Source: Candidatus Levyibacteriota bacterium (GTDB lineage Bacteria; Patescibacteriota; Microgenomatia; Levybacterales; UBA12049). From it: a stretch of 64,000 nt of DNA. Below, piece after piece: positions 4,119 to 40,839 of this stretch (its first letter is position 1; every line of letters starts with the position of its first letter). The stretch covers positions 4,112-68,111 of the forward strand of contig JACPLF010000003.1 of NCBI GenBank assembly GCA_016186645.1, read 5' to 3'. Under the pieces are notes generated by a model that saw only the letters and a program-made list of their open reading frames with translations, was not told where the DNA came from and searched no databases. The translations under genes were made by a program, and so were the position numbers.

Positions 4119-4125
4119 TAAGAAT

Positions 4126-9684: not shown

Positions 9685-9713
9685 AAAAAAATCAGATAAC
9701 TAAATGTAAATTT

Positions 9714-9867: not shown

Positions 9868-9978
9868 TTACTGAATTCCTGTTATTGTAAGACTGAGGTG
9901 TCAAGCTAACACACCCCAGGGGTGTACGAGGGGAGTGTTCTGTCAGGAAAAAGTCGAGTTGAAAATGAAATCATCTTA

Positions 9979-9987
9979 TGCTATAAT
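9979..9987 (+). promoter_or_regulatory. extended -10 promoter TGCTATAAT, 8 nt upstream of the ATG at 9996 (leaderless start)
   Basis: Sequence tgctataat ccgatagt ATG. Confidence 0.5.
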
Positions 9988-9995
9988 CCGATAGT

Positions 9996-11522
9996 ATGAT
10001 AGGCACAAAGGAAGCAGTTTCTCGTACATTTCCAGAAACTCTAAGTGGAGAGCAAAACAGCTTCGTAGGTTTTATTGACCAAAATAGAGATCTTTTTGAG
10101 AGACATACTTCTTCGACTTATGAGTTAAGAGATGAACGAGATGGCTGGAGAAATTCTCCCACGATAAGTGAAGTGGCGCATAAGCACGCAGTTCTGTCAC
10201 TGCCTCTTAGGGGGGGGCATAATGCGTCTCCTCCAAACACCAGAGAATGGAAGCGGCATGAAGAGAGGATAAGAGATGCTATCGATAGGGAAATCTTTAG
10301 CAGCCCTGATGGAAAAAATACTTTGCCTGCAAAGCGACCGCCTCTTGATTCAATTTGGGCGAAAACAACTCCTTTACAAAGAGCTGAAATACAAGAATTA
10401 ATGGGCAGGACTGAAGAATTTCAAGCAGACTTCCTTGCGGCAATAGCGCCTTTAGCCGCAGAAGTTGAACAATTAAAAGAGGAATTATTTTCCAATTTCA
10501 AAAATTATCTGTTTTCAGATCCTGACGGCATTTTCGCCGTTAGAGATTTCCTAACAGATAAAAAATTCGCGTCTCAGAGAGAAACCATAAGACCTTTTCT
10601 TGCCAGTTTTGTTCAGAGTGAAGATAAGTTAGCAAAAGACGGCAAGAGAGGAATATTGGGCGAGACAGTTAAAAAGTGGGCAGATGAAATTTCGAAAAGA
10701 GTAACTCCAGTTCTTGTTGACGAATTTGTTGAGTCTATTAGAAATCCTAATGTTCTTGAATGGCTGGAATTTGCAGCAAATATGCCTATAAGCGTTCTGG
10801 GTACAACTGAGGAAAGGGATAAAGATTTGATAAGAGATAGCATTGTCAGTTTTCTTAAGAGCCGTCCGGATGTTTCTTTTTGGCCGCCAGAACTCAAAAA
10901 AGCATTATCCTCTTTTGCTTCATCTAAATATGCTACCGCGCGTTCTTCTGTAGAAAAGGGGTTAGAAGGGTTTAGAAGACCGTTGAGTTCAAAACCGGCA
11001 CCGCAGATCCATCTGGAACCAGAAAAGAAAATAGAAGGGGCGCCTGTTCAGGAAGATGCCAAAAAAGAACCAGATGATAAAAAAGGTGCATCAGAAAAGG
11101 CTGAAAAAAGAAAATATCCGATTGGGATATTGACAAAAGAAAGCGGATCGTCGCATGGGTTTGACATTAGGGTTTTAACAGAAGAGGAACTGAAAGATTT
11201 TTTACGAGAAAAGGCTGATTCTTTTGCTTCTTCGGATTTAAAAATGGCGGGAGATTTTAGAACTATAGTTGCCAGTCTGCGAGAGGATCCTTATGGGTTT
11301 GGCACAAAAAAACTCAACAACATGTCTGTTGGAATTGGTAAAACAAAAAGTTCTCCCATTCGAAGCATGGATCCTGGAAAAAGAATCGGCCTTCATCTTG
11401 AACATCCGGAATCGCAGAAAATTAGAATTGCTTATGTTATTTATGGAAGCGGAGACGATAAAGTAATTGTTATTGAAGGAATTTATAGTCATGATGATTA
11501 TGACAGTAAATTTGGAGCATAG
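9996..11522 (+). CDS. hypothetical 508-aa protein with a C-terminal RelE/ParE-like toxin fold
   Basis: C-terminal about 100 aa (LKDFLRE...DPYGFGTKKLNN...IRIAYVIYGSGDDKVIVIEGIYSHDDY) follows the RelE/ParE pattern. The N-terminal 400 aa are unrecognised. The gene is GC-richer than the flanking sequence. Confidence 0.5.
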   Translation: MIGTKEAVSRTFPETLSGEQNSFVGFIDQNRDLFERHTSSTYELRDERDGWRNSPTISEVAHKHAVLSLPLRGGHNASPPNTREWKRHEERIRDAIDREIFSSPDGKNTLPAKRPPLDSIWAKTTPLQRAEIQELMGRTEEFQADFLAAIAPLAAEVEQLKEELFSNFKNYLFSDPDGIFAVRDFLTDKKFASQRETIRPFLASFVQSEDKLAKDGKRGILGETVKKWADEISKRVTPVLVDEFVESIRNPNVLEWLEFAANMPISVLGTTEERDKDLIRDSIVSFLKSRPDVSFWPPELKKALSSFASSKYATARSSVEKGLEGFRRPLSSKPAPQIHLEPEKKIEGAPVQEDAKKEPDDKKGASEKAEKRKYPIGILTKESGSSHGFDIRVLTEEELKDFLREKADSFASSDLKMAGDFRTIVASLREDPYGFGTKKLNNMSVGIGKTKSSPIRSMDPGKRIGLHLEHPESQKIRIAYVIYGSGDDKVIVIEGIYSHDDYDSKFGA

Positions 11523-12154: not shown

Positions 12155-12973
12155 ATGAGAGAAATTACACTGGAAGAATTATTGGAGGCAGGCTGTCATT
12201 TTGGCCACCAGGTCACAAGAAGCAATCCCAAGGCTCGTGATTTTATATTTGAAGCCCGCGATAATATCCACATTATTGATTTAGCCAAAACAAAAGAAGG
12301 GCTCGTTGAGGCCGCCGCTTTTGTCAAAGATTTAGCATCCAAAAATGGAACTTTGGTAGTTGTCGGAACAAAAAGACAGGCAAAAGCGATTGTGGAAGAA
12401 GCCCTACGCCTTGCTCAGGATAAAGGAGCAGGGGAAGGACTTTATTATATAACTAACCGTTGGGTTGGAGGACTTTTGACAAATTTCTCCGAGGTTTCCA
12501 AAAACTTTAAAAAATATGCAGATTTCGTAACTGATTTGCAGGATGACGAAGTAAAAGCAAGATATACAAAAAAAGAAATAGGCGGGTGGGAGAAAGAAAG
12601 CCGCAAGTTGGAAAATCTTTACGGCGGAGTTGCGAAAATTACAAAAAAACCTGATGCATTATTTATTATCGACTCCCATTTGGAAGATTTGGCAGTTAGG
12701 GAAGCTTTAGCTACACATATTCCAACTGTCGGAATAGTTGATACAAATGCAGACCCGGCTGTTTTAGACTATCCAATTCCTGCCAACGACGATGCAGTCG
12801 GTTCGATAAAATTAATCGTAAGCTATATAATTGATGCGTGGATAGAAGGCCGCAAGGAAGCCGAACTAAGAATTAAGAATGAAGAATTAAAAGTTAAAAA
12901 AGAAGCTGAAAAGGCAGAAGCAAAAGCATCTAAGGTACAAGTTAAAACCGTTGCAAAAAAGAAAAAGAAATAA
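12155..12973 (+). CDS. rpsB: 30S ribosomal protein S2
   Basis: MREITLEELLEAGCHFGHQ N-terminus. SD AAGGGAG at 12144-12150. Confidence 0.95.
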   Translation: MREITLEELLEAGCHFGHQVTRSNPKARDFIFEARDNIHIIDLAKTKEGLVEAAAFVKDLASKNGTLVVVGTKRQAKAIVEEALRLAQDKGAGEGLYYITNRWVGGLLTNFSEVSKNFKKYADFVTDLQDDEVKARYTKKEIGGWEKESRKLENLYGGVAKITKKPDALFIIDSHLEDLAVREALATHIPTVGIVDTNADPAVLDYPIPANDDAVGSIKLIVSYIIDAWIEGRKEAELRIKNEELKVKKEAEKAEAKASKVQVKTVAKKKKK

Positions 12974-13002
12974 TTGTTAAATTGTTACATTGTTAAATTG
13001 TT
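12973..13002. repeat. tandem 8-bp AAATTGTT-type repeats (about 4 units) between rpsB and tsf
   Basis: taattgttaaattgttacattgttaaattgtt. Similar arrays at 23078-23150 and inside pepP at 62513-62545. Confidence 0.6.
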
Positions 13003-13458
13003 ATGATAGGCTTGGAACTTCTAAGAAAACTTCGAAACGAGACACAGGCGGGGATTGCCGATTGCAGGAGGGCTTTGGAAGAATCGAATAATGATTATAA
13101 AAAAGCACTCGTTTGGCTTAGAGCTCACGGATTGGAAAAAGCCGCCAAAAAGAAAGACCGCCAGACCTCTCAAGGATTAGTAGAATCATACATTCATCAA
13201 AATGGACGGGTTGGAGCGTTGGTGGAAGTTTTGTGCGAGACCGATTTTGTTGCCCGAACAGACGAATTCAAACATTTTGTACACGAAATTTGCATGCAGG
13301 TCGCAGCAATGAAACCAAAAGATGTACCAGCACTTTTGAAACAGGAATACATTAGAGACGGTTCAAAAACTATTGAAAGTTTGATAAAAGAAACAATCGC
13401 AAAGTTAGGTGAAAATATAGTTGTCAAAAGACTCCAAAGATTTGGAATAGGAGAATAA
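13003..13458 (+). CDS. tsf: elongation factor Ts (short form)
   Basis: UBA-like N-terminus (GIADCRRALEESNNDYKKALVWLR) and a dimerisation core. At 151 aa it is the truncated form seen in reduced genomes. Confidence 0.8.
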   Translation: MIGLELLRKLRNETQAGIADCRRALEESNNDYKKALVWLRAHGLEKAAKKKDRQTSQGLVESYIHQNGRVGALVEVLCETDFVARTDEFKHFVHEICMQVAAMKPKDVPALLKQEYIRDGSKTIESLIKETIAKLGENIVVKRLQRFGIGE

Positions 13459-14784: not shown

Positions 14785-14856
14785 GATTTACGAATTATGA
14801 TTTACGATTCTTAATTCTTAAATCCTAAATCTTAAATCATCTAGAGTATTCCAATT

Positions 14857-16041: not shown

Positions 16042-16709
16042 AAAAGGTTACCATAATTACAGTAGAAAATCAGCAAGAAGGCTTGGCTGCTGCAAAGTAT
16101 TTGCTATACAAAAAAGTTGACGATCAAACACTGCTTCTTCTCTCGGGGGGATCAACCCCAAAAGATTTGTACGAAACTATAGCGCAGGAAAAAAAGTTAA
16201 CGGCTAAAGCAGTTGGAATGGTTGATGAGAGGAAAGATAGAAGCAATTATAAAATGATAATGTCAACAGGATTATTGGATTATCTTAAGAATCTGAAAAT
16301 AAAATTTTACCCAATGATTTCTGCATCGTATTACGATAGGGACATACATAAACTTATAGGTTCATCTAAAAATAAAGCAGCTGTTATGGGTATTGGAGCA
16401 GATGGACACACAGCCGGCTTGCCAGCCGGAACTCAAATCTCAAATCTTAAATCTCAAAACTACGTAATAGATATAAATAATTTTCCTGGGGAGTTTAGAA
16501 AAAGAGTTACATTAACATTTAGAGCTCTTTTGAAAATGGATTTACTAATTGTCCTAGCTTTTGGCGAAAACAAAAAAGAGGCTTTGGAAAAAATGTTTGA
16601 CCCTTCGGCGGACTCAGGGCAAGAAGCGATTGAAGAAATTCCTGCAAGATTTTATCTTCGTCCCGATATTGCTCCTAAAACCCTTTTAATTACTGATCAG
16701 AAGATATAG
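16038..16709 (+). CDS. pgl: 6-phosphogluconolactonase
   Basis: GIGADGHTAGL motif of the NagB/DevB family. Confidence 0.7.
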   Translation: MKKVTIITVENQQEGLAAAKYLLYKKVDDQTLLLLSGGSTPKDLYETIAQEKKLTAKAVGMVDERKDRSNYKMIMSTGLLDYLKNLKIKFYPMISASYYDRDIHKLIGSSKNKAAVMGIGADGHTAGLPAGTQISNLKSQNYVIDINNFPGEFRKRVTLTFRALLKMDLLIVLAFGENKKEALEKMFDPSADSGQEAIEEIPARFYLRPDIAPKTLLITDQKI

Positions 16710-19743: not shown

Positions 19744-20996
19744 ATATGCGTTACTCTAAGCTATTTGGGAAAACCATAAAAAATGCGCCGAATGATGAGG
19801 TCAGTCTAAATTCCAAGCTCTTAACCCGCGCCGGATTCATACGTCGTGAAGTTTCCGGAGTGTACAATTATCTGCCCTTAGGCTTAAGAGTAATTGAAAA
19901 AATTTCCAATATAGTCCGGGAGGAAATGCATGCAATCGGCGGACAGGAATTGTTGTTAAGCGCTCTTCAAAATAAACAGTCTTGGGAGAAAACAGGCAGA
20001 TGGAAAAGTTTTGATGTGCTTTTCAAACTCACAAGTGTTTTGGATCGGGAGTATCCTTTGGGGCCTACACATGAAGAAGTAATTATTCCTTTAGCAAAAC
20101 AATTTATAAGCTCGTACAAAGATTTGCCTTTTAGTGTTTATCAAATTCAGACAAAATTTAGAGATGAAAAAAGAGCCAAAAGCGGAATTTTAAGAGGCCG
20201 TGAGTTCCTGATGAAAGATTTATATTCATTTCATGCAGATGAAAAAGATTTCAAAAAATATTACGAAACTGTAAAAAAAGCATACAAAAAAATTTTTAAA
20301 CGTTTGGGACTTATCGCTATTGAAACAGAAGCAAGCGGAGGATCATTTAGTAAAGTTTCTCATGAATATCAAGTTATTGCCGCGGCGGGAGAGGATGAGA
20401 TTATTTATTGCCCGGGCGGAGATTTTTCTGCAAACAGTGAAATAAGTCCTGTTAAGGAAGGAAAACAGTGTGACTTGGGCCATGGAGCCTTAAAAAAGGT
20501 AAAAGCAATTGAAGTTGGGAATATTTTCCCTCTTGGCACAAAGTTTTCCGATGCTTTTGGATTGACTTATAAAAATAAAGAAGGCAAAGATATTCCTGTT
20601 GTCATGGGATGTTATGGGATTGGCATCTCAAGACTGATGGGTACAATTGCCGAAGTTCATAATGATGAAAAAGGAATTGTCTGGTCAAAAGAGGTTGCGC
20701 CGTATGACGTTCACTTGGTCCACCTCGGAGGAGTCGAGGCCGCTGCCTCGCCACCGTCCGAGGTGATACGTTTTGCGGATGAAGTTTATGAAACACTGAA
20801 GAAGAATGGAGTTGAAGTTTTGTGGGATGATCGGGAAGAGTCTCCAGGAACTAAATTCGCAGACGCAGACCTCATCGGAATTCCAGTTCGGTTGGTTGTT
20901 AGTAAAAGAAATGGCGACAAGGTCGAGTTTAAAAATAGAAATTCAGAAAAATCAGAGCTTTTAAGTTTGGGAGAGACTGCTAAAAAATTAAGGTAA
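19744..20996 (+). CDS. proS: prolyl-tRNA synthetase, minimal form with no editing insertion
   Basis: Class II motifs and MRYSKLFGKTIKNAP N-terminus. ATG at 19744 (the ORF track begins at the TTG at 19737). TGCTATACT at 19725-19733. Carries an in-frame hairpin insert at 20721-20765. Confidence 0.9.
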
Positions 20997-21599
20997 AAAG
21001 GGAACTTTGAAGTTGAAGATTTTTGTCCAGAAAAGCGTGTAGATCACAATGAAAATCAATCCCGCAATTCCAAATAAAATAGGTATCATTATCCCGCTTT
21101 TCTTTTTGATAGCAATAGTTTGAGCTTGAGGCTGGGGCTGGGGAGCTGAAAAATTTGCTGAAGAAGGAGAAGCTGTAACTTCTGAGTTCATTTGAACAAA
21201 GTTAGAAGCTTGCGGCTGCGTGGGGATAGCTAGGTCGGGTGTTGGAATAGGTTCAGGCTGAGGATGAATTGCAGGCTGAGGCTCGGGTATTGAAGGTTGT
21301 GGCTCGGAAATAGGCTCAGGTTCATTCGTAGGGGCTGGAGGCGGCTGAATAGGCTGAGTTGGTATTGGTTCTGGTTGAGGCATTGGTGTTGGAGCAGGAG
21401 TTGGATTGGGCATAGGAGGTGTAGTTCCGCCGGCTGGCGGAGTAAGAGTTTGAGTCTGAATTGGCTCGCCTCGGGGCGAAGCCACGCCAAAGGCGGGCGA
21501 AGGAGGCTGAGTTTGCGGTTGGGGCACAGGTGTTCCCATTACGCGCTGATAGGCTTCTCTTAATTTCGGATCGAGCTGGGACAGTTTTTGCGGATCCAT
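20988..21599 (-). CDS. proline-rich tail-anchored membrane protein
   Basis: PQPEPIPT repeats and a C-terminal TM helix. Contains the 18-mer CTCGCCTCGGGGCGAAGC (21465-21482) on its antisense. Confidence 0.5.
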   Translation of the reverse strand: MDPQKLSQLDPKLREAYQRVMGTPVPQPQTQPPSPAFGVASPRGEPIQTQTLTPPAGGTTPPMPNPTPAPTPMPQPEPIPTQPIQPPPAPTNEPEPISEPQPSIPEPQPAIHPQPEPIPTPDLAIPTQPQASNFVQMNSEVTASPSSANFSAPQPQPQAQTIAIKKKSGIMIPILFGIAGLIFIVIYTLFWTKIFNFKVPFLP

Positions 21600-21639
21600 A
21601 TTTTTATATTTTTATTAGAATCTTTGAAGTTAGATATTA

Positions 21640-21762
21640 TTGATGTCTTTGATTCTGAATCTTTGAATTTTTGATTTTCTTGAATTCAAGATATCAATAA
21701 CTCAAGGTCAAAAACATCTCACTTCTAATTTCAAGAATTCCTTACATAAATATAGTCTTTTA
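21640..21762. repeat. family 3 palindromic intergenic element, copy C
   Basis: Homologous to 27505-27628 and 52480-52596 (tcttgaattc...atcaaa...gtcaagg...atcta...ttcaa). Confidence 0.55.
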
Positions 21763-21809: not shown

Positions 21810-22091
21810 ATGAATCCCGTTAAAGATCGCTTTTATTATGTTTACATTTTACAAAGTTTGAAGAGCAACAAATGGTATACTGGCTACACAAATGAATTAC
21901 GCAAGCGTTTTAATCAACATCAAGAAAATAAATCTACATATACAAAAGGACGAGGACCTTTTAATCTTATATATTATGAAACATCGTTGAGAGAGGAGGA
22001 CGCTATAGCGAGAGAAAGATATCTTAAAAGCGGGATGGGCAAACGATATCTTAAAAATAGATTAAAACGCTCGCTATCTTTAACGGGATGA
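21810..22091 (+). CDS. GIY-YIG family nuclease (small, UPF0213-like)
   Basis: YYVYILQS...WYTGYTNELRKRFNQH. The TATACT -10 lies 7 nt before the ATG. Confidence 0.75.
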   Translation: MNPVKDRFYYVYILQSLKSNKWYTGYTNELRKRFNQHQENKSTYTKGRGPFNLIYYETSLREEDAIARERYLKSGMGKRYLKNRLKRSLSLTG

Positions 22092-23077
22092 AAATCGTTG
22101 TAACTCACAGTTCGCCGGACATGGATGCCATAACTTCTGTCTGGCTTATCAGAAAATTTTTACCAAATTGGAGCGATGCCCTAGTTAGGTTTGTACCAGC
22201 GGGAGAAAGGTTTACTTTTCGGAAAACTCAGAATGCTCAGAGCTCCAGCGTTTCTGACGGTCAGACTATCAGACAATCTGACTCTCCGAGTTCTTCAGAG
22301 TTTTCTGAAGTTGTCGAAAATATTGGCGAGGATGAAGTTATCCATGTTGATACTGGATTGGGACCTCTGGATCATCATCAGACTGCATCGGATGAAGTAT
22401 GCGGAGCAAGCCTGACGTTTGACTTCGTCAAACGAGTTCAAAATTCAAAATTCTCGCCTCGGGGCGAAGCGGGCAAAATTCAAAATTTGGAAAGCAAAAA
22501 GTGGAACGACAGAATGAAGGCAGTAGGGAGGATGGTGAAAGTTGTTGTTGATATAGATCATTTTAAGGAAGTTTTCCGCAAGGACCCTTTGGCTGACTAT
22601 CATGAATTTGACCTTGCAGGTATTTTGGATGGGCTCAAGCTCGAGCTTCCGGGTCAAGATGAATTATATGTTGCAGAAGTTAGCAAATCTTTGGATGCAA
22701 TTTTGCATGGGTTTGAAAATAGGATTTGGGCGGAAAAAGAAATCAGGGAAAAAGGGAAAAAATTTAAAACGCGCTTTGGCCGCGGAATTGGTTTAGAGAC
22801 AATAAATGATTCGGTTGTAAAATTGGCTCAAAAAATGGGATATGTAATTGCTGTGAGAAAAGATCCAAGAAAAGGGTACGTCCGAATAAAAGTGAGGCCG
22901 GATAGTAAAATTGATTTGACTTTAGTCTACGAGAAGTTTAGAAAAATCGACCCGGATGCCACGTGGTTTCTTCATGTTTCCAAAAAAATGCTTCTCAACG
23001 GTTCGGTAAAAAATCCCAAGATGAGGTCTACCAAGCTTTCTTTGAATGACATAATTAGAGTTCTAGAAAAGATATAA
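22088..23077 (+). CDS. DHH-family phosphoesterase (nanoRNase/NrnA-like)
   Basis: HSSPDMDAITS, DTGLGPLDHHQ. Overlaps the GIY-YIG stop. Carries in-frame repeat inserts at 22261-22300 and 22452-22469. Confidence 0.75.
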   Translation: MKIVVTHSSPDMDAITSVWLIRKFLPNWSDALVRFVPAGERFTFRKTQNAQSSSVSDGQTIRQSDSPSSSEFSEVVENIGEDEVIHVDTGLGPLDHHQTASDEVCGASLTFDFVKRVQNSKFSPRGEAGKIQNLESKKWNDRMKAVGRMVKVVVDIDHFKEVFRKDPLADYHEFDLAGILDGLKLELPGQDELYVAEVSKSLDAILHGFENRIWAEKEIREKGKKFKTRFGRGIGLETINDSVVKLAQKMGYVIAVRKDPRKGYVRIKVRPDSKIDLTLVYEKFRKIDPDATWFLHVSKKMLLNGSVKNPKMRSTKLSLNDIIRVLEKI

Positions 23078-23150
23078 TTGTTATATTGCTAAATTGTTAT
23101 ATTGTTAAATTGTTTTTGGTTCCTAGCAATATAGCAATTTAACAATAAGC
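23078..23150. repeat. tandem 8-bp AAATTGTT/ATATTGCT repeats with an inverted partner
   Basis: attgttatattgctaaattgttatattgttaaattg ... caatatagcaatttaacaat. Confidence 0.6.
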
Positions 23151-23171: not shown

Positions 23172-23537
23172 ATGGAAAACTGTGTTTTTTGCAAAATCAG
23201 AGATAGAATTATCCCGAAAGAATTCACTTACGAAGATGAATCGGTGATGGTTTTTCCGGATATAAATCCAATTAAGCCTGTTCATCTTTTGATTGTTCCC
23301 AAAAAACATATAGAAGACTTTTTAATGATAAATGATCCCTACAACGCTCGCGCTTCGAGGGGCGAGGCAGGTAAATTATTAATTATGAAGTTAATAAAGA
23401 TAACTCAAAAAATGATAAAGAAGTTCGGATTAGAAAATAAGGGATACAGGGTTGGAATAAACGGCGGAGGAGCCCAAATCATAAACCATCTTCACTTCCA
23501 TCTCCTAGGCCCCATGGGTAAAGCTGCTGCGATGTAA
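23172..23537 (+). CDS. HIT-family (histidine triad) nucleotide hydrolase
   Basis: NHLHFHLLG histidine triad. Contains the 21-mer ACAACGCTCGCGCTTCGAGGG (23341-23361), identical to a stretch in folC. Confidence 0.85.
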   Translation: MENCVFCKIRDRIIPKEFTYEDESVMVFPDINPIKPVHLLIVPKKHIEDFLMINDPYNARASRGEAGKLLIMKLIKITQKMIKKFGLENKGYRVGINGGGAQIINHLHFHLLGPMGKAAAM

Positions 23538-23614: not shown

Positions 23615-23767
23615 TTATTTGATTTCCGATCAAAAGATATATGACTACAATCAGCGATCGCATAGTAATATCATACATTATCTATGATCATAGCTGTAAC
23701 GCTTGAGTGGATTAAATGGGTATTTACTCTATTTTGGGTTTGGAGTAGAATAGAAAGTGGTAACGTG

Positions 23768-24155: not shown

Positions 24156-24542
24156 ATGGAGCAGGTTAATATCCCCATTTTTGTAGAAAGCAGATATAGA
24201 GTCAATAGGAAACGCATTAAACAAGCTGTTTCCAAAGTGCTAATGAAGCACGAAATCAAAGGCCCTGTGGAGGTTTCTGTTGCTATTGTTGGAGATCGGA
24301 AAATGCGCGCTTTAAGCAAAAAATATAAAGGTGAGGACAAGACAAGAAATGTTTTATCATTTTCACTGTCCGAAGGTGAATCAGCACATTTGGATAACGA
24401 AGTTTTAAGACTCGGAGACATTGTCCTGTCCTACCCGCAAGTTATAAAAGAAGCATCGGAAGAAGAAATGCTTGTGGATGATAAAATTGATGAACTCATT
24501 GAACACGGAATGCTCCACCTTTTGGGAATCAATCATGAGTGA
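24156..24542 (+). CDS. ybeY: rRNA maturation endoribonuclease YbeY
   Basis: NVLSFSL, LGDIVLSYP and HGMLHLLGINHE motifs. Confidence 0.8.
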   Translation: MEQVNIPIFVESRYRVNRKRIKQAVSKVLMKHEIKGPVEVSVAIVGDRKMRALSKKYKGEDKTRNVLSFSLSEGESAHLDNEVLRLGDIVLSYPQVIKEASEEEMLVDDKIDELIEHGMLHLLGINHE

Positions 24543-24544
24543 AA

Positions 24545-24697
24545 TTGACCTAATTGCCCTAATTAACCACGTCAAACGTGGCAGGCCTAATTTCTAAGCT
24601 GGAACTTGGCCCGCCTTGCCCGTTTCGACTCAACGAGGCGAGCCGGGCGAGGCAGGGATTTGATTAGGTCAATTAGAAATTAGAATAATTAGAAATT
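24545..24697. repeat. family 1 MITE-like element (TTGACCTAAT/ATTAGGTCAA TIRs) followed by AATTAG tandem repeats
   Basis: Homologous to 4003-4118. Confidence 0.65.
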
Positions 24698-24704
24698 TAG
24701 GTGT

Positions 24705-26291
24705 ATGGTTTTTTATCGAAAATATCGTCCGCAAAAAATAGAAGAGCTGGATAGTAAAGAAGTTAGGGACAAACTTCATAGTGTTTTGGGAAGCTCCTCT
24801 GTTTCTCATGCTTTTCTTTTTACAGGCCCCAAAGGTTTGGGAAAAACCTCAGCTGCAAGAATTGTCGCAAAAGTCCTAAACTGTGAAAAGGTGAGAAATG
24901 AGAAAGGAGAAATGAAAAATAAAGATAAAACTTCCCATCTCTCATCTCTCACTTCTCATTTCCGTGCGGTTGAGCCGTGCAATAAATGTGAACAATGCAT
25001 CTCGATTACACGCGGAACAAATCTAGACGTTTTGGAAATAGATGGTGCTTCAAATAGGGGAATAGATGAAATAAGAGATCTTAGGGAAAAAGTAAAACTT
25101 TCTCCAGCCGGGAGCCGCAAAAAAGTTTATATTATCGATGAAGTTCACATGTTAACCGCAGAAGCGTTTAATGCGCTTCTTAAAACTTTGGAAGAACCGC
25201 CAAGTCATGTTGTTTTTATTCTCTGCACAACAGAACCTCACAAAGTGCCAAGCACAATTCTGTCCCGTTGTTTACATATTCAATTTAGAAAAGCAACAGA
25301 GGCAGAACTGGTCAGATCGTTTGAAAGAATAATTAAAGCGGAAAAAATAAAAGCCGACAAAGAAGCCTTAGATTTAATCGCTAGTCTTTCAGACGGTAGC
25401 TTTAGAGACGGATCAAAACTTTTGGAAGAAATAGCTCTTTTGGCAGGACGTAAAAAAATTGCAAAAGAATTGATAGAAGAAAAATATTATGTATCAAGTA
25501 TTAAGTATCATATTAGAGCGATGGTGAAATGTTTGGATGCGAAAGACACAAAAGGAGGACTTGAACTTGTTTCAAAGCTGACAGAACAGGGCATTGACAT
25601 GAAGTTTTTTATTGAAGAATTAATACAGACTCTCCATAGTTTGTTACTTCAAAAAGTAGGGATTAAGAATGATCAAGAATTGGAAGTTCAAATTCTAGAC
25701 TTTGATATCAATGGAATCAAAAGACTGGTAGAATTATTTGCAAAAGCGCACAGCGAATTAAAATATGCGGTTTTGCCCCAGATTCCTTTGGAGCTGGTGA
25801 TTGTGGAATGGGGAATCCAGAAAACTCAGAATACTCAGCAATCCGGCAATTCTGATAATCAGACGATCAGACCCGCTTCACCGAAGCTCCCGCCTAGACT
25901 CGGCGAGGCTGGTCAGCGAGGCGAGCAATCTGATTCTCCGAGTATTCAGAAAATGGTGAAAGCACAAAAAAATGAAATACCGCTTAATGTTGCTCAGCAG
26001 AATATGATGGGGTACAGTGAGAATAATGCGTTGTGGGTCTCTTTGATAGATAGAGTGAAGGCTTACAATCATTCTATTGCCGGGGTATTGCGCGGATGCA
26101 GGATAAAAAGTTATGATGGTAAGAGTTTAATAATAGAAGCAAATTTCAAATTCCATAAAGATAAATTAGGGGAAATAAAAACACAACAGGTTTTGGAAGA
26201 AGCATGCAAAGAAATTACGAAGAAAAATGTTAAAGTAGAAGTGATGATGAAACCCGCCGTCGCTAAAGCTTTGGCGGGCGATGGGAGGTGA
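24705..26291 (+). CDS. dnaX: DNA polymerase III subunits gamma/tau
   Basis: MVFYRKYRPQKIEEL, GPKGLGKTS P-loop, a zinc module with CNKCEQC, and a box VII LSRC sensor. Carries nested GC-rich repeat inserts at 24930-24965 and 25857-25943. Confidence 0.9.
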   Translation: MVFYRKYRPQKIEELDSKEVRDKLHSVLGSSSVSHAFLFTGPKGLGKTSAARIVAKVLNCEKVRNEKGEMKNKDKTSHLSSLTSHFRAVEPCNKCEQCISITRGTNLDVLEIDGASNRGIDEIRDLREKVKLSPAGSRKKVYIIDEVHMLTAEAFNALLKTLEEPPSHVVFILCTTEPHKVPSTILSRCLHIQFRKATEAELVRSFERIIKAEKIKADKEALDLIASLSDGSFRDGSKLLEEIALLAGRKKIAKELIEEKYYVSSIKYHIRAMVKCLDAKDTKGGLELVSKLTEQGIDMKFFIEELIQTLHSLLLQKVGIKNDQELEVQILDFDINGIKRLVELFAKAHSELKYAVLPQIPLELVIVEWGIQKTQNTQQSGNSDNQTIRPASPKLPPRLGEAGQRGEQSDSPSIQKMVKAQKNEIPLNVAQQNMMGYSENNALWVSLIDRVKAYNHSIAGVLRGCRIKSYDGKSLIIEANFKFHKDKLGEIKTQQVLEEACKEITKKNVKVEVMMKPAVAKALAGDGR

Positions 26292-26599: not shown

Positions 26600-27502
26600 A
26601 TGAAGATTTTTTCTGGTACTTCAAATAAGCCGCTTGCGGAAAATTTGGCAAAAGATTTAGGTATTGAGCTTTCTCCTCTTGAGGTTTTTATATTTCCTGA
26701 TGGGGAGAAAAGGATTAGAATTCTTGATAAAGTTTTGGATGAAGATGTTTTCGTCGTGCAATCTACCTCAAAGCCTGCGGATGAAAATTACATGGAATTA
26801 TTTTTTATTATTGATGCTCTCAAAAGATCGGGCGCAAAATCCATAACCGCGATTGTCCCGTATTTTGGCTACCAAAGGCAAGACCATCAATTCCGCGATG
26901 GGGAAGCTGTTTCTGTGAAAGTTGTTGCGGAAATTTTGGAAAAAGTCGGAATCAATAAATTAATTGCCTTGGATCTTCATTCGATCAAAATAGAGCAGGC
27001 TTTTGATATTTCTGTTATTCATCTGTCTGCGCTTTCTATTTTCGCAAAATTCATAAAAGAAAAAGTATGGGATAAAAATTCAACTCTTGTATCGCCTGAC
27101 ATGGGGGGTATAAGAAGAATTAAGATTTTGTCGAAAATGCTTGGTGATATGCCTTATTCTATTATTGAGAAAAACAGAGATTTGGCAACTGGTTTTGTGT
27201 TTGCGAACAAAATTGAGGGGAAAATTGGCAAAAGAGCAATTATAGTTGACGATATGATTTCGACAGGTGAAACTATTGATAAAGCAGCTTCTCTTTTGAA
27301 GAAAAATGAAGCAGAAGATATAGTTGTATTCGCAACTCATCCTGTTTTTTCCGAAATTGCCCCAAAAATTCTTCAGGAATCTGGGGTTAGTTCTGTTTAT
27401 GTAACAGATACAATTTTTGTACCAAAAGAAAAAAGATTCCCAAAACTAAAAATATTGTCAGTAAGCGAACTGATATCAACAGAATTAAAGAAGAATTCTT
27501 GA
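26600..27502 (+). CDS. prs: ribose-phosphate pyrophosphokinase
   Basis: MKIFSGTSNKPLAE N-terminus and the IVDDMISTGET PRPP-binding loop. Confidence 0.9.
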   Translation: MKIFSGTSNKPLAENLAKDLGIELSPLEVFIFPDGEKRIRILDKVLDEDVFVVQSTSKPADENYMELFFIIDALKRSGAKSITAIVPYFGYQRQDHQFRDGEAVSVKVVAEILEKVGINKLIALDLHSIKIEQAFDISVIHLSALSIFAKFIKEKVWDKNSTLVSPDMGGIRRIKILSKMLGDMPYSIIEKNRDLATGFVFANKIEGKIGKRAIIVDDMISTGETIDKAASLLKKNEAEDIVVFATHPVFSEIAPKILQESGVSSVYVTDTIFVPKEKRFPKLKILSVSELISTELKKNS

Positions 27503-27504
27503 AG

Positions 27505-27628
27505 ATGGAAGTGAGAATTTCTTGACTTTGATTTCTTGAATCGTTGATGTTCTTGAAGTCAAGAATTCTAAACATCAAATGTTCAAAATCAAAAATGTCA
27601 AGGACATCTAATTTCAAAAGTTCAGATT
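27505..27628. repeat. family 3 palindromic intergenic element, copy A, directly upstream of recR
   Basis: ttcttgaagtcaagaattc palindrome. Homologous to 52480-52596. Confidence 0.6.
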
Positions 27629-28237
27629 ATGAAAATACCTAAAGCCATACAAAGCCTAATTGAGTCTTTTGAGAAACTGCCGGGCATTGGGCAGAAAACT
27701 GCCCAGCGCCTCACTTTTTATCTATTGCATATTCCGCAAGGCGAGTTAGATAACTTTGCCAATTCAATCCAGAATCTTAAAAAAGGAACAATTATTTGTT
27801 CTATTTGTTTTTCAGTTGATGAGGCCGACCCATGCAGTATTTGTGAGAATCGAGAGCGTGATAAGTCTATTATTTGTGTTGTTGAAGAGCCGTTGGATGT
27901 TTTGGCGCTTGAGAAAAACGGTAAATACCATGGTGTATACCATGTTCTGCATGGGAAAATAGATCCGCTAAACAATATAGGTCCGGACGAAATTTATATA
28001 AAGCAATTATTGGATAGAATTATGAATCAAGAATCAGGAATTAAGGAGGTAATATTAGCTACAAACCCGACAATGGAAGGAGAGGCGACGGCAATGTACA
28101 TAGCAAAACAACTCAAATCTCAAATCTCAAATCTCAAAATTACGAGGATTGGGAGAGGGCTGCCAACAGGCGCGGATATTGAATACGCGGATGAGTTAAC
28201 TCTTCAACGAGCCATGGAAGGCAGGCAAAATTACTGA
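27629..28237 (+). CDS. recR: recombination protein RecR
   Basis: LPGIGQKTAQRL HhH, C4 zinc finger and Toprim. Confidence 0.9.
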   Translation: MKIPKAIQSLIESFEKLPGIGQKTAQRLTFYLLHIPQGELDNFANSIQNLKKGTIICSICFSVDEADPCSICENRERDKSIICVVEEPLDVLALEKNGKYHGVYHVLHGKIDPLNNIGPDEIYIKQLLDRIMNQESGIKEVILATNPTMEGEATAMYIAKQLKSQISNLKITRIGRGLPTGADIEYADELTLQRAMEGRQNY

Positions 28238-28249
28238 TAATATTAAACT

Positions 28250-28580
28250 ATGAATGATGATACGATTTTGGGCGGAGTTTTAAATCAACTGGGACAAACT
28301 GCAAAAAAAAGCTGGACAGCAGATTGTAAAAATACCTGAAGAAATGGCAAATGATGCGGGCGGTCAGATTGGTTCTGCAAAGCATCAGTGGCAGTCAGAT
28401 GAGGAAAGAATAAAATTCTTAAGATACCTTTACGGTTCGGATAAAGACGCAAATCCTTCGGATGGAAAACCTACGGAGTTTGAAGAGAAATTAAAGGAGA
28501 AGGATTTGGCGATTCCTAAGTCGGAACAGGAATTGGATGAGTTTTTGGCAAAGCCTTTGCCCCGAAAAACAGCGGGTTAA
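28250..28580 (+). pseudogene. frameshifted paralog of the 29519-30016 gene; an A8 homopolymer at 28303-28310 breaks the frame
   Basis: The frame from the ATG at 28250 stops at 28337-28339. Removing one A gives a read-through product collinear with the paralog (…KIPEEMA…QWQSDEERIKFLRYLYG…). Confidence 0.55.
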
Positions 28581-29002
28581 GAAAACAAATCTAGTGTCGT
28601 AGCCGCATTTGGATCGTTTACTTTCTGCACCAGCTTCTCGTCCGCCGAAATTAAAATAATCCTATTTTCCGCTGCCAAAGTAACATATGCGCTGTCATAA
28701 GCGGAAATTTTATATTTATGGCAATTTTTCAAAGATTTTAAGAGCAGGTCATGCGTCGCAATCGTTTGCGGACTTGCTTTTAAAACCATTCTCAAAAGCT
28801 TTCTTGATTGAACGTAAGATAATTTATTCTTTAACATTGCTGAAGCAAAACCATTAACGATTTCATATTCCCAAATTTCCGGAGCAAGAAGCAAAATATC
28901 ACCCTTTTCCGATAGGGTGAGCAAATTTCTTGCTTTCTCTGAATCTTTTTCCTCAAAGACCCACTTGAGGCAAACCGAAGCATCAACAACAACCTTTCTC
29001 AT
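28577..29002 (-). CDS. vapC: PIN-domain toxin VapC
   Basis: VVDASV...SAYDSAYVTLA...ILISADEKL PIN acidic residues. Confidence 0.8.
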   Translation of the reverse strand: MRKVVVDASVCLKWVFEEKDSEKARNLLTLSEKGDILLLAPEIWEYEIVNGFASAMLKNKLSYVQSRKLLRMVLKASPQTIATHDLLLKSLKNCHKYKISAYDSAYVTLAAENRIILISADEKLVQKVNDPNAATTLDLFS

Positions 29003-29238
29003 TCAAACTTTCTTCCGCTTTTAATCAAATCCAGAGCGGAAATGTTAATTTTAACCGCAGATTTTTTAAATTTTTCAGCCATATTAATCTGAATAGAACT
29101 AGTTAACTGTTTGTTTTTATATAAGGATACGGCATGTCTAATTAATGCTGCTGTACTTTTTCCTTCAGAGAAAGCCAAGAGTTTAATCTTGTTGTATTCA
29201 TCGGCAGGAAATCTTAAATTGGTTGCAATTGTGTCCAT
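28999..29238 (-). CDS. vapB: RHH (CopG/VapB-like) antitoxin
   Basis: MDTIATNLRFPADEYNKIKLLAFSEGKSTAALIRHAV. The start region contains CCATGGTA direct repeats at 29236-29255. Confidence 0.65.
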   Translation of the reverse strand: MDTIATNLRFPADEYNKIKLLAFSEGKSTAALIRHAVSLYKNKQLTSSIQINMAEKFKKSAVKINISALDLIKSGRKFE

Positions 29239-29518
29239 AGCACCATGGTACCATGGTACCATTTCCCTGTCAAGAGCTAATTTCACTTTGAATTCACTTT
29301 AAGGATTTAGAGTTATTATTCTAAACTTTTTGGAGGGAGGCGGGGATGGAAACTTGTCAAGACATATTATTTGGTTTTTCGGCGTATCTATTGTAAAGCC
29401 AACCATTATCAAGTTACTAGTTTCAAAAAAAATAGAAGGAGATGATATGATTGGGGAGTGAAAAAAGCGCTGAAAAATAATAGTTGGAATTTGACCTAAT
29501 TTTAAGTAAACTTATGTT

Positions 29519-30561: not shown

Positions 30562-31950
30562 ATGTTAAAGATTTACAATACATTAACCCGGAAAGTGGAG
30601 GATTTTAAGCCTCTGAATCCGCCGGTTGTAAATATGTACACTTGCGGGCCCACAGTTTATGATTATCAGCATATTGGCCATATGCGGCGTTATGTTGGCG
30701 ATGACATTCTTGTCCGCACTTTGGACTTTAATAATTTCAAAGTAAAGCAGGTCATGAATATTACGGATGTCGGCCATTTGACATCGGATTCAGATACAGG
30801 AGAAGACAAAATGGAAAAGGGAGCGCGCAAATTTGGGATGAGTGTTTGGGATATCGCCAAAAAATTTGAAAAGCAATTTTTTGATTCCGCCCGCGCATTA
30901 AATATTAGGAAACCAGATATTTTGATGCATGCTACAGATTATATAAAGGAACAAATTGTTTTTATCCAGACTTTGGAAAAGAAGGGCTTCACTTACAAAA
31001 TTGATGATGGAGTATATTTTGACGCATCTAAGTTTCCGGATTACGGAATTCTGACAGGTCAGAGGTCGGAAGAGTTAAAAAAAGGAGCACGAGTAGAATT
31101 TGTTAAGGGTAAGAGAAATGTTACAGATTTTGCTCTTTGGAAGTTTTCTCCAAAAGGCGAAAAAAGACAAATGGAATGGGAGAGTCCGTTTGGCTTAGGT
31201 TTTCCGGGATGGCATATTGAATGTTCTACAATGGCAATAAAAGGCTTGGATACAGAGACTTTGGATATTCACACAGGCGGAATTGACCATATTGCAATTC
31301 ATCACACCAATGAAATTGCGCAATCAGAGGGAGCAACCGGCAGGCAATTCGTAAAATATTGGGTGCATCATAATTTTCTGCATGTTGATGGAGCGAAAAT
31401 GAGCAAGAGTATTGGTAATATTTTTACAGTTGAGGAAGTTGTCAGAAGGGGATTTGATCCATTGGCTTTAAGATATTTGTATTTGCAGACTCATTACAGG
31501 CAGGAAATGAATTTTACCTGGGATGCTTTGGAGGGAGCGCAAATTGCGTACAAAAGGTTGATTGATGAAGTTTCTAAGTTTAAAAATCCAAAAATCGGCT
31601 GCGCAGAATTTGAAGGGAAATTCTTGGACGCGATAAATGATGATTTGAATATGGCCAAAGCCTTATCTGTTGTTTGGGATTTGATCAAATCCGATTATCC
31701 GGATAGCGCCAAAGCAGAAAGCATTTTGAAAATGAATCAGGTTTTGGGTCTTGATTTGGAAAAAGCGAAAGAAAAGAAAAAGAAAATAAAAATCGTTGTT
31801 CCGCAAGAAGTGCAAATACTTATTGAAGAACGTAACAAGTTGAGAAAACAGGGGAGTTATACTCAGGCAGATCACATCCGCAACAAGATTAAAAAATTAG
31901 GTTTCAATATAAAGGATACAAAAAAGGGAGTGATAGTTGAGAAGATTTAG
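30562..31950 (+). CDS. cysS: cysteinyl-tRNA synthetase
   Basis: CGPTVYDYQHIGH HIGH motif and KMSKS. Confidence 0.95.
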   Translation: MLKIYNTLTRKVEDFKPLNPPVVNMYTCGPTVYDYQHIGHMRRYVGDDILVRTLDFNNFKVKQVMNITDVGHLTSDSDTGEDKMEKGARKFGMSVWDIAKKFEKQFFDSARALNIRKPDILMHATDYIKEQIVFIQTLEKKGFTYKIDDGVYFDASKFPDYGILTGQRSEELKKGARVEFVKGKRNVTDFALWKFSPKGEKRQMEWESPFGLGFPGWHIECSTMAIKGLDTETLDIHTGGIDHIAIHHTNEIAQSEGATGRQFVKYWVHHNFLHVDGAKMSKSIGNIFTVEEVVRRGFDPLALRYLYLQTHYRQEMNFTWDALEGAQIAYKRLIDEVSKFKNPKIGCAEFEGKFLDAINDDLNMAKALSVVWDLIKSDYPDSAKAESILKMNQVLGLDLEKAKEKKKKIKIVVPQEVQILIEERNKLRKQGSYTQADHIRNKIKKLGFNIKDTKKGVIVEKI

Positions 31951-32930
31951 TTTTTTGTTTTTAGAAATTCTAATGTTTCCTTCGCATTTTGAAACTTCAT
32001 AAGTTCTGTTCTCACATTACTTGCGTTTGGCATGCTCGCCTCGCTGAAGCTTTGGCGAAGCGGGCCGGAGATGTAGATTTTGTAGAACTTTTTCATAATG
32101 GAGAAGTTTTTAGTTTTGCCCCAAGTTTTGTCAAAAAGCGTAATGTGCGTAATTAATAATTTTAATTTTTCTTGATAAGAAATGCTTGCTGGGTTTATGG
32201 ATTTATTATAAATCCAAAGGTTGTCAAAAATTCCCCGTCCTATCATAATTCCATCAACTTTATATCTCTTGTATTTTTCCATTGCATCGTCAAGACTTTT
32301 TACATCGCCATTTCCGATAATTAGGGTTTTGACTTTCATAGCATCTCTCAATTTAACAACTTTTCCGATTTCATCCCAGTGGGCCGGAACATCTGACATT
32401 TCCGCAGCTGTCCGGCCATGAATTATAAGGCAATCAAGATTTAATCCCAGCAAAAATCTTGCCCATTTTTCTGTTTGAATATTTTTAATTCCGATTCTGG
32501 TTTTAACGCTTACAGGGAGACCACTGGCGCCCTCCCGTGTTGCCAAAATAATTTCTTTGGCAAGTGCATGGTTGTTTATTAAAGCAGCACATGAGCCTTT
32601 TTTTACAACTGATTTTTCCGGACACCCCATGTTGATGTCAATCCCATCAAAACCTCTGAGTCTTATTAATTTTGCAGTTTCAAAATAATTTTTGGGATTG
32701 TTTCCCCAAATCTGCGCAACAATCGGGTGTTCAATATCTGTAAATTTTAATCTTTTCCCAACTTTGTCCCGGCCTTTTGAACACATGCCTTCGACATTTG
32801 TGAACTCTGTAAAAAAGACATCGGGTTTTCCACATCTTGCAATTATTTGTCGGAAAACCGTATCAGTCACATCTTCCATTGGGGCCTGAATCAAAATCGG
32901 TTTTTTAAGACTAGTCCAAAAGTTCTTCAT
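31947..32930 (-). CDS. dus: tRNA-dihydrouridine synthase
   Basis: APMEDVTD..., INMGCPEKSVVKKGSCAAL motif. Confidence 0.85.
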   Translation of the reverse strand: MKNFWTSLKKPILIQAPMEDVTDTVFRQIIARCGKPDVFFTEFTNVEGMCSKGRDKVGKRLKFTDIEHPIVAQIWGNNPKNYFETAKLIRLRGFDGIDINMGCPEKSVVKKGSCAALINNHALAKEIILATREGASGLPVSVKTRIGIKNIQTEKWARFLLGLNLDCLIIHGRTAAEMSDVPAHWDEIGKVVKLRDAMKVKTLIIGNGDVKSLDDAMEKYKRYKVDGIMIGRGIFDNLWIYNKSINPASISYQEKLKLLITHITLFDKTWGKTKNFSIMKKFYKIYISGPLRQSFSEASMPNASNVRTELMKFQNAKETLEFLKTKN

Positions 32931-34046: not shown

Positions 34047-34244
34047 ATTAAATATTATATTTATTCTAAGTTTAAACTGCAATCATAAGAAAAAATAAAA
34101 ATTGCACATAAAAAAATAAGAGTTTTATACTTTTTCAGCGCGCAAGTAATACCTGCAAAGTGTTTATTAAAAGCACCAAAGACAAAATTAGGTATATAAC
34201 TACTTAAAGCGATCGCATCAAATTATTATATACGTAAATGTTAG

Positions 34245-40766: not shown

Positions 40767-40839
40767 TTATTTTAAGCGATCGCATGATAAAATCATACAT
40801 CAGAAATGTTAGATGTGACATAATTAGCTTTATTAATTT

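Follow-up and report, generated by a model that had tools for sequence, protein, structure and literature searches.

A three-level nest of short hairpin-forming repeats in the dnaX gene of a Levybacteria genome

The dnaX gene of a Candidatus Levyibacteriota bacterium, a groundwater organism with a small genome (GCA_016186645.1, contig JACPLF010000003.1), contains a segment in which three repeats are placed one inside the other. It lies in a stretch of 64,000 nucleotides (positions 4,112 to 68,111 of the contig), which we refer to as the window and number from its own first letter. An AT-rich palindrome of about 90 nt, the outer element, encloses a GC-rich module of 30/31 nt (the 31-mer), and the loop of this module in turn holds a 24-nt GC hairpin of a second family, F2. 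We read the dnaX segment as small hairpin-forming repeats, non-autonomous and nested in one another, which insert into the loops of hairpins and persist in genes only if they remain in frame, and we give this reading a probability of about 0.78.

An earlier note on this DNA, made from the letters alone, had pointed to a 57-nt stretch of dnaX that recurs between genes, within an element of 154 bp with inverted-repeat ends. Exact alignment of 25870-25926 with 9788-9844 gives 55 equal positions out of 57, both copies being on the + strand. A 55-nt pattern allowing up to three mismatches finds these two sites only in the window and nothing in 100 dinucleotide shuffles. The intergenic element also has a genuine terminal inverted repeat of 13 nt (9714-9726 / 9855-9867). 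The 57-mer had been taken for a single core that landed in another repeat; a second element does lie inside a copy of the outer one, but the 57-mer is itself a two-level nest made of the 31-mer and the 24-nt F2 hairpin. When it is compared with the simple 31-mer of the gene for tRNA-dihydrouridine synthase (Dus, 32034-32064), it becomes clear that the 57-mer equals a 31-mer with CCCGCCTAGACTCGGCGAGGCTGG placed between AAGCT and TCAG. The innermost 24-mer is absent from the standard 30/31-nt module, which reads CCCGCTTCGCCRAAGCTTCAGCGAGGCGAGC. Folded as single-stranded DNA (ssDNA), the 31-mer forms an 8-bp stem (CGCTTCGC/GCGAGGCG) and a 10-nt loop, and the insertion point of the 24-mer falls within that loop. 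F2 hairpins follow the pattern GCCCGYCT-loop-GGCGAGGCWGG, with related units at 4046-4070, at 24606-24657 and in locus L030; the reciprocal nest, a 31-mer within an F2 hairpin, is found in L016.

The GC block of dnaX is flanked by ...CAGACGATCAGAC on the left and AATCTGATTCTCCGAG on the right, and a DHH-family gene of the window contains these flanks in joined form at 22262-22290 (CAGACTATCAGACAATCTGACTCTCCGAG). The suggestion that a shorter element is split in dnaX and intact in the DHH gene is therefore correct as regards the joined copy, but the outer repeat measures about 90 nt rather than 29. The likeness of the two genes reaches far beyond the 29-mer, with 79% identity between 22222-22274 and 25820-25872 and 94% between 22274-22291 and 25926-25943. 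Relative to the DHH copy, the net insert in dnaX amounts to 54 nt or 18 codons (PASPKLPPRLGEAGQRGE), at 25872-25925 or 25873-25926, and it falls between the Arg and Gln codons of ...QTIR/QSDSPS.... The leftmost three letters of the 57-mer, GAC, are also part of the outer element. The positions of the individual layers and of related features are listed in Table 1.

Table 1. Layers of the dnaX nest and related features of the window
Feature	Position	Strand	Remarks
dnaX (DNA polymerase III gamma/tau), host of the nested insert	24705-26291	+	open reading frame (ORF); 100% match to NCBI Levybacteria DnaX; Pfam AAA/DNA_pol3
Outer element, left arm, in dnaX	25818-25872	+	encodes QKTQNTQQSGNSDNQTIR; 79% identity to DHH 22222-22274
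5' half of the 30/31-nt GC module (middle layer), CCCGCTTCACCGAAGCT	25872-25888	+	matches the 31-mer family
Innermost 24-nt GC hairpin CCCGCCTAGACTCGGCGAGGCTGG, F2 family	25889-25912	+	in the 31-mer loop, AAGCT^TCAG
3' half of the 31-mer module, TCAGCGAGGCGAGC	25913-25926	+	matches the 31-mer family
Outer element, right arm, in dnaX, AATCTGATTCTCCGAGTATTCAGAAAA	25927-25953	+	encodes QSDSPSIQK; 94% identity to DHH 22274-22291
Second 57-nt composite (31-mer with nested 24-mer), intergenic	9788-9844	+	between glyA (8275-9591) and ORF 9996-11522
154-nt intergenic element holding the second 57-mer	9714-9867	+	13-nt terminal inverted repeats ACCCCGTTACCCA / TGGGTAACGGGGT; DNA fold z = -2.86; no Rfam match
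Uninterrupted outer element, in frame in the DHH-family gene (22088-23077; weak Pfam DHH match)	22218-22309	+	encodes RKTQNAQSSSVSDGQTIRQSDSPSSSEFSE
22-nt GC hairpin GCCCGCTTCGCCCCGAGGCGAG in the DHH gene, between TTCAAAAT repeats	22453-22474	-	encodes SPRGEAG; orthologue in L002 shorter here
36-nt GC-rich insert in the HIT gene (23172-23537)	23336-23371	+	encodes PYNARASRGEAG; absent from the HIT orthologue in L002
Simple 31-mer CCCGCTTCGCCAAAGCTTCAGCGAGGCGAGC in the Dus gene (31947-32930, -)	32034-32064	-	encodes (G)PLRQSFSEAS
Intergenic composite hairpin upstream of dnaX	24540-24700	+	AT-rich repeat arms and F2-type GC hairpin; DNA fold z = -5.87
93-aa single-domain GIY-YIG nuclease gene, directly upstream of DHH	21810-22091	+	Pfam GIY-YIG, E = 8.7e-15; candidate trans-acting factor, lead only

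The uninterrupted copy in the DHH gene shows the architecture of the outer element, an imperfect palindrome (69% self-complementary over 93 nt; DNA fold z = -2.55) with an 8-nt periodicity. The 19-mer GAAAACTCAGAATACTCAG of the left arm in dnaX recurs in L002 and in nine metagenome loci (scan of metagenomes with a 26-base degenerate pattern from this arm, nine loci). Further copies occupy in-frame positions in radA (L091) and guaA (L094) and the same site of the DHH gene in L095 and L098; others are intergenic or lie in short ORFs. Just two of the six frames of the element are free of stop codons, both of them forward, and the copies in dnaX, DHH, radA and guaA are all forward and read in the frame QKTQN...SDSPS; purifying selection acting on random insertions would leave such a pattern. 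The earlier note had assumed that one repeat family entered two housekeeping genes in frame. This is borne out by the syntenic contig L002 (DHH-HIT-S21-YbeY-dnaX), which lacks about 27 codons (~81 nt) at the DHH site, and by the presence of the element in only 6 of 120 DHH orthologues; radA and guaA extend the list.

In DnaX, the outer element occupies a hypervariable linker before the C-terminal domain, where at least four repeat-derived peptide types are found across the orthologue groups. Among 120 orthologues, about 21 have a linker peptide of the QKTQN type; that of the closest ones (67-73% identity) is of a different type. Thus, the outer insertion in dnaX appears to be older or recurrent and not unique to this genome. 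The peptide types of the DnaX linker are met again in other genomes, in the variable loop of DHH; both regions are permissive sites that have been hit repeatedly by several palindromic families. Two further observations concern the same protein. A second variable insert, RNEKGEMKNKDKTSHLSSLTSHF, is located in the N-terminal region (~24900-24990), between the Walker A region and the zinc-binding CxxC, and is shared with the orthologue P0004 and absent from P0002. In the orthologue P0029, an analogous AT-rich element holds a nested peptide of the GC type, IPTPPRLRGAGK, as a second example of nested architecture.

The order of the layers can be followed in other copies. The centre of the outer element, CAGA(C/A)AATCTGA, is uninterrupted in the remaining copies that were examined (window, L002 and metagenome matches), and the PASPKL...QRGE peptide occurs in none of 120 dnaX orthologues. 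An intermediate stage is represented by the DHH orthologue P0125 (contig L099), whose outer element carries the simple 31-mer only (PASPKLQRGE) at the same central position as in dnaX of the window. Together, these data agree with the previous view that a second element landed inside the dnaX copy. Contigs L095 and L099 stem from the same aquifer well; over a total of 1.47 kb they show 100% identity in one part (224 nt) and 99.4% in the other (1250 nt), with a single length difference. At the centre of the DHH outer element, L099 has 31 nt where L095 has a single A, and no duplication is seen. Since presence and absence occur within one population, this is a recent insertion or excision.

A second pair of filled and empty sites is provided by the Dus gene. 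The orthologue in L001, with about 90% protein identity, is shorter by exactly 10 codons (30 nt) at the 31-mer site. The empty site reads TTCCG-AC-ATGCC and the filled one CTCCG[...]CATGCC, so that neither of the two filled/empty comparisons (Dus, L099/L095) reveals a target-site duplication. The composite hairpin upstream of dnaX contains a nested GC insert of 25 nt (24621-24645) that is missing from the homologous stretch 3999-4125, and part of the HIT insert recurs at 1299-1322, within a gene of the Mur ligase family. In genes, the length of a copy is always divisible by three, and the frame in which it is read is free of stop codons.

The GC modules stand out as islands, because the window has a G+C content of 36-40% throughout (38% for the genome). 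The earlier description of the genome as AT-poor is wrong; it is AT-rich. At least seven genes of the 64 kb bear in-frame GC hairpin units, among them those for DnaX, Dus, prolyl-tRNA synthetase and HIT. Motifs of the GC families give about 19 matches in the window, and single motifs exceed the Markov expectation roughly 9- to 200-fold (GAGGCGAG, 8 observed versus 0.9 expected; GCGAGGCGAG, 4 versus 0.02). About 57 kb of DNA from relatives (L001, L002, L091, L094) contains one such motif only, which points to lineage specificity. An origin from a structured RNA or tRNA was considered and dismissed. Rfam at gathering thresholds identified no family and ARAGORN no tRNA in the whole window, and at E <= 5 the region 9560-10020 gave just one chance miRNA match.

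For the 31-mer we searched the species-representative genomes of GTDB with the pattern CCCGCTTCNCCNAAGCT-N(0-30)-TCAGCGAGGCGAGC, requiring exact stems, and obtained 91 copies in 87 stretches. Most hosts belong to the Candidate Phyla Radiation (CPR), i.e. Saccharibacteria, Daviesbacteria, Woesebacteria, Roizmanbacteria, Blackburnbacteria and many Parcubacteria groups. According to the titles of the records, the module is also present in metagenome-assembled genomes (MAGs) labelled Gammaproteobacteria, Bdellovibrionales, WOR-3, Elusimicrobia, Planctomycetia and Bacteroidetes, and in one isolate. Further copies in the same loci, detected by blastn-short, differ at loop positions 12-22 only. Approximately 40 of the 91 copies are situated inside long ORFs, where all five stop-free frames are used; genes for LeuRS, IleRS, acetyl-CoA synthetase and alanine racemase (two copies) are examples. 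A phage or plasmid vector was ruled out as carrier of the 31-mer on the basis of zero matches in IMG/VR, the INPHARED phages and the PLSDB plasmids. In a MAG labelled Gammaproteobacteria (L038, 850-2350), a gene that we take, from reading its sequence by eye, to be alanine racemase-like contains two in-frame hairpins of the SRM type discussed below, with the 31-mer nested in the loop; the same composite is present at no fewer than 10 sites of this MAG.

As a rule, the 31-mer is located at the centre of a host-specific palindrome, and at least ten distinct host hairpin types can be distinguished. These include GTCATTCCCG...GAAAGCGGGAATCC and its reverse, GTCATTCTGG...CCAGAATC and GACCCTGAGCTTG...CGAAGGGTC, as well as F2 hairpins, other 31-mers and the outer element of Levybacteria. 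When the flanks of the 31-mer are joined in silico, they fold with -11.2 kcal/mol, versus -7.1 kcal/mol at random positions of the same loci (p = 5e-10). Inserts in the loop at AAGCT^TCAG recur in L011, L018 and the window, and self-nesting is seen in L012, L015, L027 and L085. Some copies are placed inside tandem repeats of 7-8 nt (AAACTA..., GAATGAC...).

Directly next to the DHH gene, the window encodes a small GIY-YIG protein whose closest solved structure is UPF0213 BH0048 (1zg2, E = 9e-11). Homologues with 85-91% identity are found in unrelated gene contexts (L100, L104, L105, L106); the dnaX and DHH orthologues reach at most 74%. The DNA similarity begins exactly at the ATG and stops exactly at the TGA, and the ends of the ORF form a terminal inverted repeat of 13-17 nt (ATCCCGTTAAAGAT / ATCTTTAACGGGAT) with compensatory changes, as in L100 (TTAGAGAC / GTCTCTAA). 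The stop codon overlaps the start codon of DHH (ATGA). Judged from these features, the 93-aa gene looks like a tiny mobile cassette. A terminal motif common to the cassette and the 154-nt element, CCCGTTA, was considered and discarded, as 7 occurrences versus 3.7 expected represent no significant enrichment. Comparable arrangements exist elsewhere. In an Elusimicrobia MAG (L019, 4300-4800), the duplicated 5' half of a tRNA gene (TTGCCGAGTGGTGAAATGGTATCACGC) flanks a GIY-YIG gene, and a 31-mer splits its upstream remnant; this looks like a cassette that has integrated into a tRNA gene. In L022 (3270-3560), a UPF0213-like GIY-YIG gene lies between 18-nt inverted repeats (CCCGTAATTTAACTTTAA / TTAAAGTTAAATTACAGGG) and adjoins tRNA genes, an architecture resembling that of an insertion sequence (IS).

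With regard to the origin of the nest, we propose the following course of events. The ~90-nt outer palindrome would have been established in frame in the variable DnaX linker as the first layer, and a 30/31-nt GC module may then have inserted into its small central loop (TCAGA-CAA-TCTGA). Next, a 24-nt GC hairpin of the second family would have entered the loop of the middle module. As two copies of the 57-nt composite exist, it was presumably copied as a unit after the nest had formed, giving rise to the copy at 9788-9844. The elements probably moved, or were copied, as ssDNA hairpins into exposed hairpin loops, and either a trans-acting host or mobile enzyme or template switching could have been the agent. 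Selection would keep only those copies that are in frame and located in tolerant surface loops or linkers. Since GC-rich sequence is largely free of stop codons, an AT-rich genome would tolerate it. We regard the copies in coding regions as most likely selfish or neutral passengers, and not as peptide additions with a function.

Several results weigh against this course of events or narrow it. The coding copies are only weakly structured as DNA (fold z = -1.3 for the dnaX composite and around 0 for the 57-mer alone), and the outer layer in dnaX could be partly old and vertically inherited. Composites such as GTCATTCCCG[31]GAAAGCGGGAATCC occur in many copies, e.g. at least 10 near-identical ones in one MAG; hence not all apex sites are independent events, and part of the apex signal is pseudo-replication. 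The hosts of the 31-mer outside the CPR are known by record-title labels alone. A Pfam scan of ~30 window proteins detected no transposase, RAYT or IS200 family. Nor did an all-versus-all comparison of 1007 ORFs from the 87 loci (635 kb) uncover a recurrent neighbour of the 31-mer, as no protein family is present in more than six loci and the top cluster seems to stem from a spurious ORF, perhaps a tRNA gene read as protein; a recurrent neighbour protein was therefore rejected as the mobilising enzyme. Neither a target-site duplication nor a clear target consensus was found, so that classical transposition is no more than one candidate, and gene conversion or template switching would fit equally well. 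A more far-reaching version of our reading, which we regard as doubtful, holds that the 30/31-nt module and F2 are an ultra-small active mobile element that crosses phyla (CPR and other small-genome bacteria sharing the same habitats) and inserts into loops on ssDNA without target duplication, possibly by means of small mobile GIY-YIG nucleases of the Ssn/UPF0213 kind.

It is possible, although on balance not probable, that no transposition took place and that template switching or ectopic gene conversion from one pre-existing hairpin to another has spread the modules. A polymerase that stalls at an extruded hairpin would switch to a similar GC stem, copy the interior and return, and nests and mosaics would be by-products of replication or repair. 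This would account for the sites without duplication (Dus, and L099/L095 with 31 nt in place of 1), for the short CCCG or C microhomology at many junctions, for the fact that the loops receiving inserts belong to hairpins with similar GC stems, and for the lack of a transposase among the window proteins scanned and the neighbours of the 31-mer; the short-period tandem repeats beside many copies suggest slippage. However, some targets offer no related stem for priming. Dus has only a weak 3-bp palindrome, and other copies lie in repeats of the AAACTA or GAATGAC type. Moreover, the 31-mer is letter-identical across phyla, which demands horizontal input or sequence-specific recognition beyond local copying. 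That the segment is nothing but low-complexity linker sequence, shaped by slippage or by selection for a flexible peptide and similar to the other copies by convergence or chance, is very improbable and already contradicted. The DnaX linker and the DHH loop are indeed hypervariable in length and composition, and the 8-nt periodicity of the outer element is typical of slippage. Yet a coding and an intergenic stretch agree at 55 of 57 positions with none in the shuffles, the same DNA occurs in five frames, on both strands and between genes, contigs of 99.4-100% identity differ by presence and absence, and four unrelated genes share the 19-mer and its element. Least probable of all is an artefact of assembly or binning, i.e. 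chimeric joins at GC-rich hairpins. All sequences are of MAG or metagenome origin, repeats break or mis-join assemblies, and many contigs with GIY-YIG genes are very short; every coding copy, however, preserves the reading frame and the flanking orthologous sequence, and the same elements appear across many independent studies and assemblers. Their absence from IMG/VR and from the phage and plasmid collections also argues against a reagent or vector contaminant.

We consider it unlikely that the GC hairpins are recognition sites of small, Ssn-related GIY-YIG ssDNA nucleases, with the 93-aa protein of the window as partner and with a spread and conservation owed to this partnership. Such a nuclease would nick ssDNA beside or within the hairpins, and the repeats would modulate transformation or recombination. 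The idea derives from the work of Chenal et al. (2025) on Ssn, small GIY-YIG nucleases with a single domain. According to these authors, they bind ssDNA at NTS/SRM hairpins (CGTCATTCCCGCGMAVGCGGGAATCYRG) and cut it there, the hairpin loop is dispensable and extendable, changes in its identity or extensions do not abolish cleavage by SsnA, and the arrangement NTS-ssnA-NTS resembles an IS (PMC11893778). In other genomes, the 31-mer sits most often in hairpins of the SRM type (GTCATTCCCG...CGGGAATCC). In L033, one of them with a nested 31-mer is located 31 nt upstream of a small GIY-YIG gene, and in L053 a similar hairpin with a different loop insert precedes a related GIY-YIG gene. Both genes may be Ssn-like; their sequence type differs from that of the window gene. 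Furthermore, a bare 31-mer is found 22 nt upstream of a UPF0213-like GIY-YIG gene in L019, and GC hairpins are found on both sides of one in L077. Within the window, 6 of ~11 GC-element loci lie within 5 kb around the gene, which itself resembles a mobile cassette with covarying terminal inverted repeats. On the other hand, the published SRM pattern (HGTCWY N0-2 YYVSBRH N0-5 WNVSBRG N0-2 RNCYNB) has no match in the window, where ~0.07 would be expected, and canonical SRM membership of the window repeats was ruled out accordingly; the 635 kb of GTDB loci contain 8 matches versus none in the control. The window protein is closest to UPF0213 and at most a putative member of the Ssn clade cd10448. 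No GC-family motif is present within 2.5 kb of the 85-86% identical cassettes (five loci in three distinct genomic contexts), and only 5 of the 87 loci with a 31-mer hold a GIY-YIG gene. Finally, no insertion of DNA by Ssn is known. For these reasons, we keep the connection with GIY-YIG nucleases as a lead and favour loop insertion of non-autonomous repeats.

By behaviour, the closest known systems would be the Rickettsia palindromic elements (RPEs), which Ogata et al. are said to have described in 2000 as palindromic, non-autonomous repeats of ~100 nt, lying in frame in genes as well as between them. We know of no dedicated transposase of RPEs. The comparison with RPEs had been drawn in the earlier note and appears apt. 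Here, too, the genome is reduced and AT-rich, and palindromic, non-autonomous repeats of up to ~100 nt are found both between genes and, in frame, within housekeeping genes (the outer element in dnaX, DHH, radA and guaA; GC modules in dnaX, Dus, HIT, LeuRS, IleRS and alr), and they seem to be tolerated in surface loops. As the host belongs to the CPR (Levybacteria) and the resemblance is one of behaviour, they are at most analogues of RPEs. In contrast to these, several families coexist, the inner modules are GC-rich and only 24-31 nt long, elements sit in the loops of one another, and a single module is found letter-identical in different phyla.

In size, structure and mosaic organisation, the repeats come nearest to repetitive extragenic palindromes (REPs), bacterial interspersed mosaic elements (BIMEs) and the REPIN-RAYT system. 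These are GC-rich imperfect palindromes of 20-40 nt in mosaic clusters, thought to be handled as ssDNA hairpins by an enzyme acting in trans. REPs, however, are extragenic and species-specific, have a conserved 5' tetranucleotide of the GTAG type and flank a gene for a REP-associated tyrosine transposase (RAYT, IS200/IS605-like Y1 transposase). Our elements are often intragenic (~40 of 91 31-mers in long ORFs; at least seven window genes with GC units), cross phyla and are nested rather than arranged side by side, and no RAYT is found among the ~30 window proteins scanned. With regard to hairpin type and a possible partner, the NTS/SRM-Ssn system (Neisseria dRS3/NTS; PMC11893778) is the nearest parallel. 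Its short hairpins occur in many copies in distant bacteria and are enriched in symbionts, SRM-type hairpins are the commonest 31-mer hosts, some copies stand beside a GIY-YIG gene, and the loop is dispensable for Ssn. The differences are that canonical SRMs are missing from the window, that the 31-mer has no GTCAT 5' flank, that the GIY-YIG protein of the window is UPF0213-like, and that NTS are rarely found in genes (2%; PMC11893778) as opposed to ~40% of the 31-mer copies in long ORFs.

GC-rich hairpins that spread in compact AT-rich genomes are also known from mitochondria, namely the GC clusters of yeast (GC42; PMC4478555) and the repetitive hairpin elements of sponges (PMC2800124). By analogy, our elements share with them the concentration of substitutions in loops (31-mer variants at positions 12-22 only, in a genome of 38% G+C), the merging, nesting or shuffling of units and occasional insertions into genes. 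GC clusters differ in being organellar, in their unrelated sequence and in a putative AG target-site duplication that has no counterpart here; the cross-phylum spread in bacteria is new. Miniature inverted-repeat transposable elements (MITEs) such as Correia are small, non-autonomous dispersed repeats with inverted-repeat ends, as is the 154-nt element with its 13-nt terminal repeats, and the stems of the GC modules act as inverted repeats. However, neither the Dus nor the L099/L095 site has a target-site duplication, a parent IS is found neither for the GC modules nor for the outer element, and the window proteins scanned include no IS or transposase.

In the literature on palindromic, RPE, MITE and REP elements of the CPR and on the characteristic peptides, we found no prior description of these repeats. 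New are the multi-level nesting in loops, the heavy in-frame load on CPR housekeeping genes and a 30-nt module that is conserved across phyla and polymorphic within a population. The usual picture of CPR genomes (Patescibacteria) is one of streamlining and a scarcity of mobile DNA. With their filled and empty sites, nesting intermediates and a candidate family of ssDNA nucleases, the nested repeats offer a tractable case of how hairpins of the RPE, REP and GC-cluster type move. They explain many odd peptides of CPR proteins (PASPKLQRGE, PLRQSFSEAS, ARLAEALAKR), which can mislead analyses of orthology, domains and structure, and they suggest that hairpin loops are a general safe harbour for further insertions. 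Should the 30/31-nt module and F2 prove to be mobile by loop insertion, this would be a new way for DNA to move, and it would supply essential CPR proteins systematically with in-frame peptide insertions.

Apart from the families of the nest, the window contains a number of other repeats. A third GC hairpin family, CCCWACAACGCTCGCGCTTCGAGGG, is represented at 1299-1322 (Mur-ligase-family gene, 401-1957) and 23341-23364 (HIT gene), and additional GC palindromes lie in proS (20717-20766), a Pro-rich ORF (21460-21509) and an M24 peptidase gene (63170-63199). An AT-rich hairpin family centred on AGCGATCGCAT (palindrome GCGATCGC) has five copies, at 4311-4375, 9643-9707, 23635-23680, 34177-34241 and 40744-40808. 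They are mostly intergenic, with one located in ORF 4126-4701 and one just upstream of the 154-nt element. Intergenic repeats with a period of 7-8 nt (ATTGTTAA, ATCTCAAA) and long AT-rich palindromes are common to several loci (12965-13010, 23069-23114 and 62511-62556; 14808-14842, 16430-16464 and 28110-28144; 21615-21740, 27493-27623 and 52516-52591). Some copies extend into coding sequence, e.g. AACTCAAATCTCAAATCTCAAATCTC in recR, which encodes QLKSQISNLKI. Finally, pairs of genes resembling toxin-antitoxin systems are found at 4738-5357, 28577-29286, 48212-48908 and 61520-61945, RelB/YafQ being assigned by Pfam and the PIN/VapC-like ORFs by eye only.

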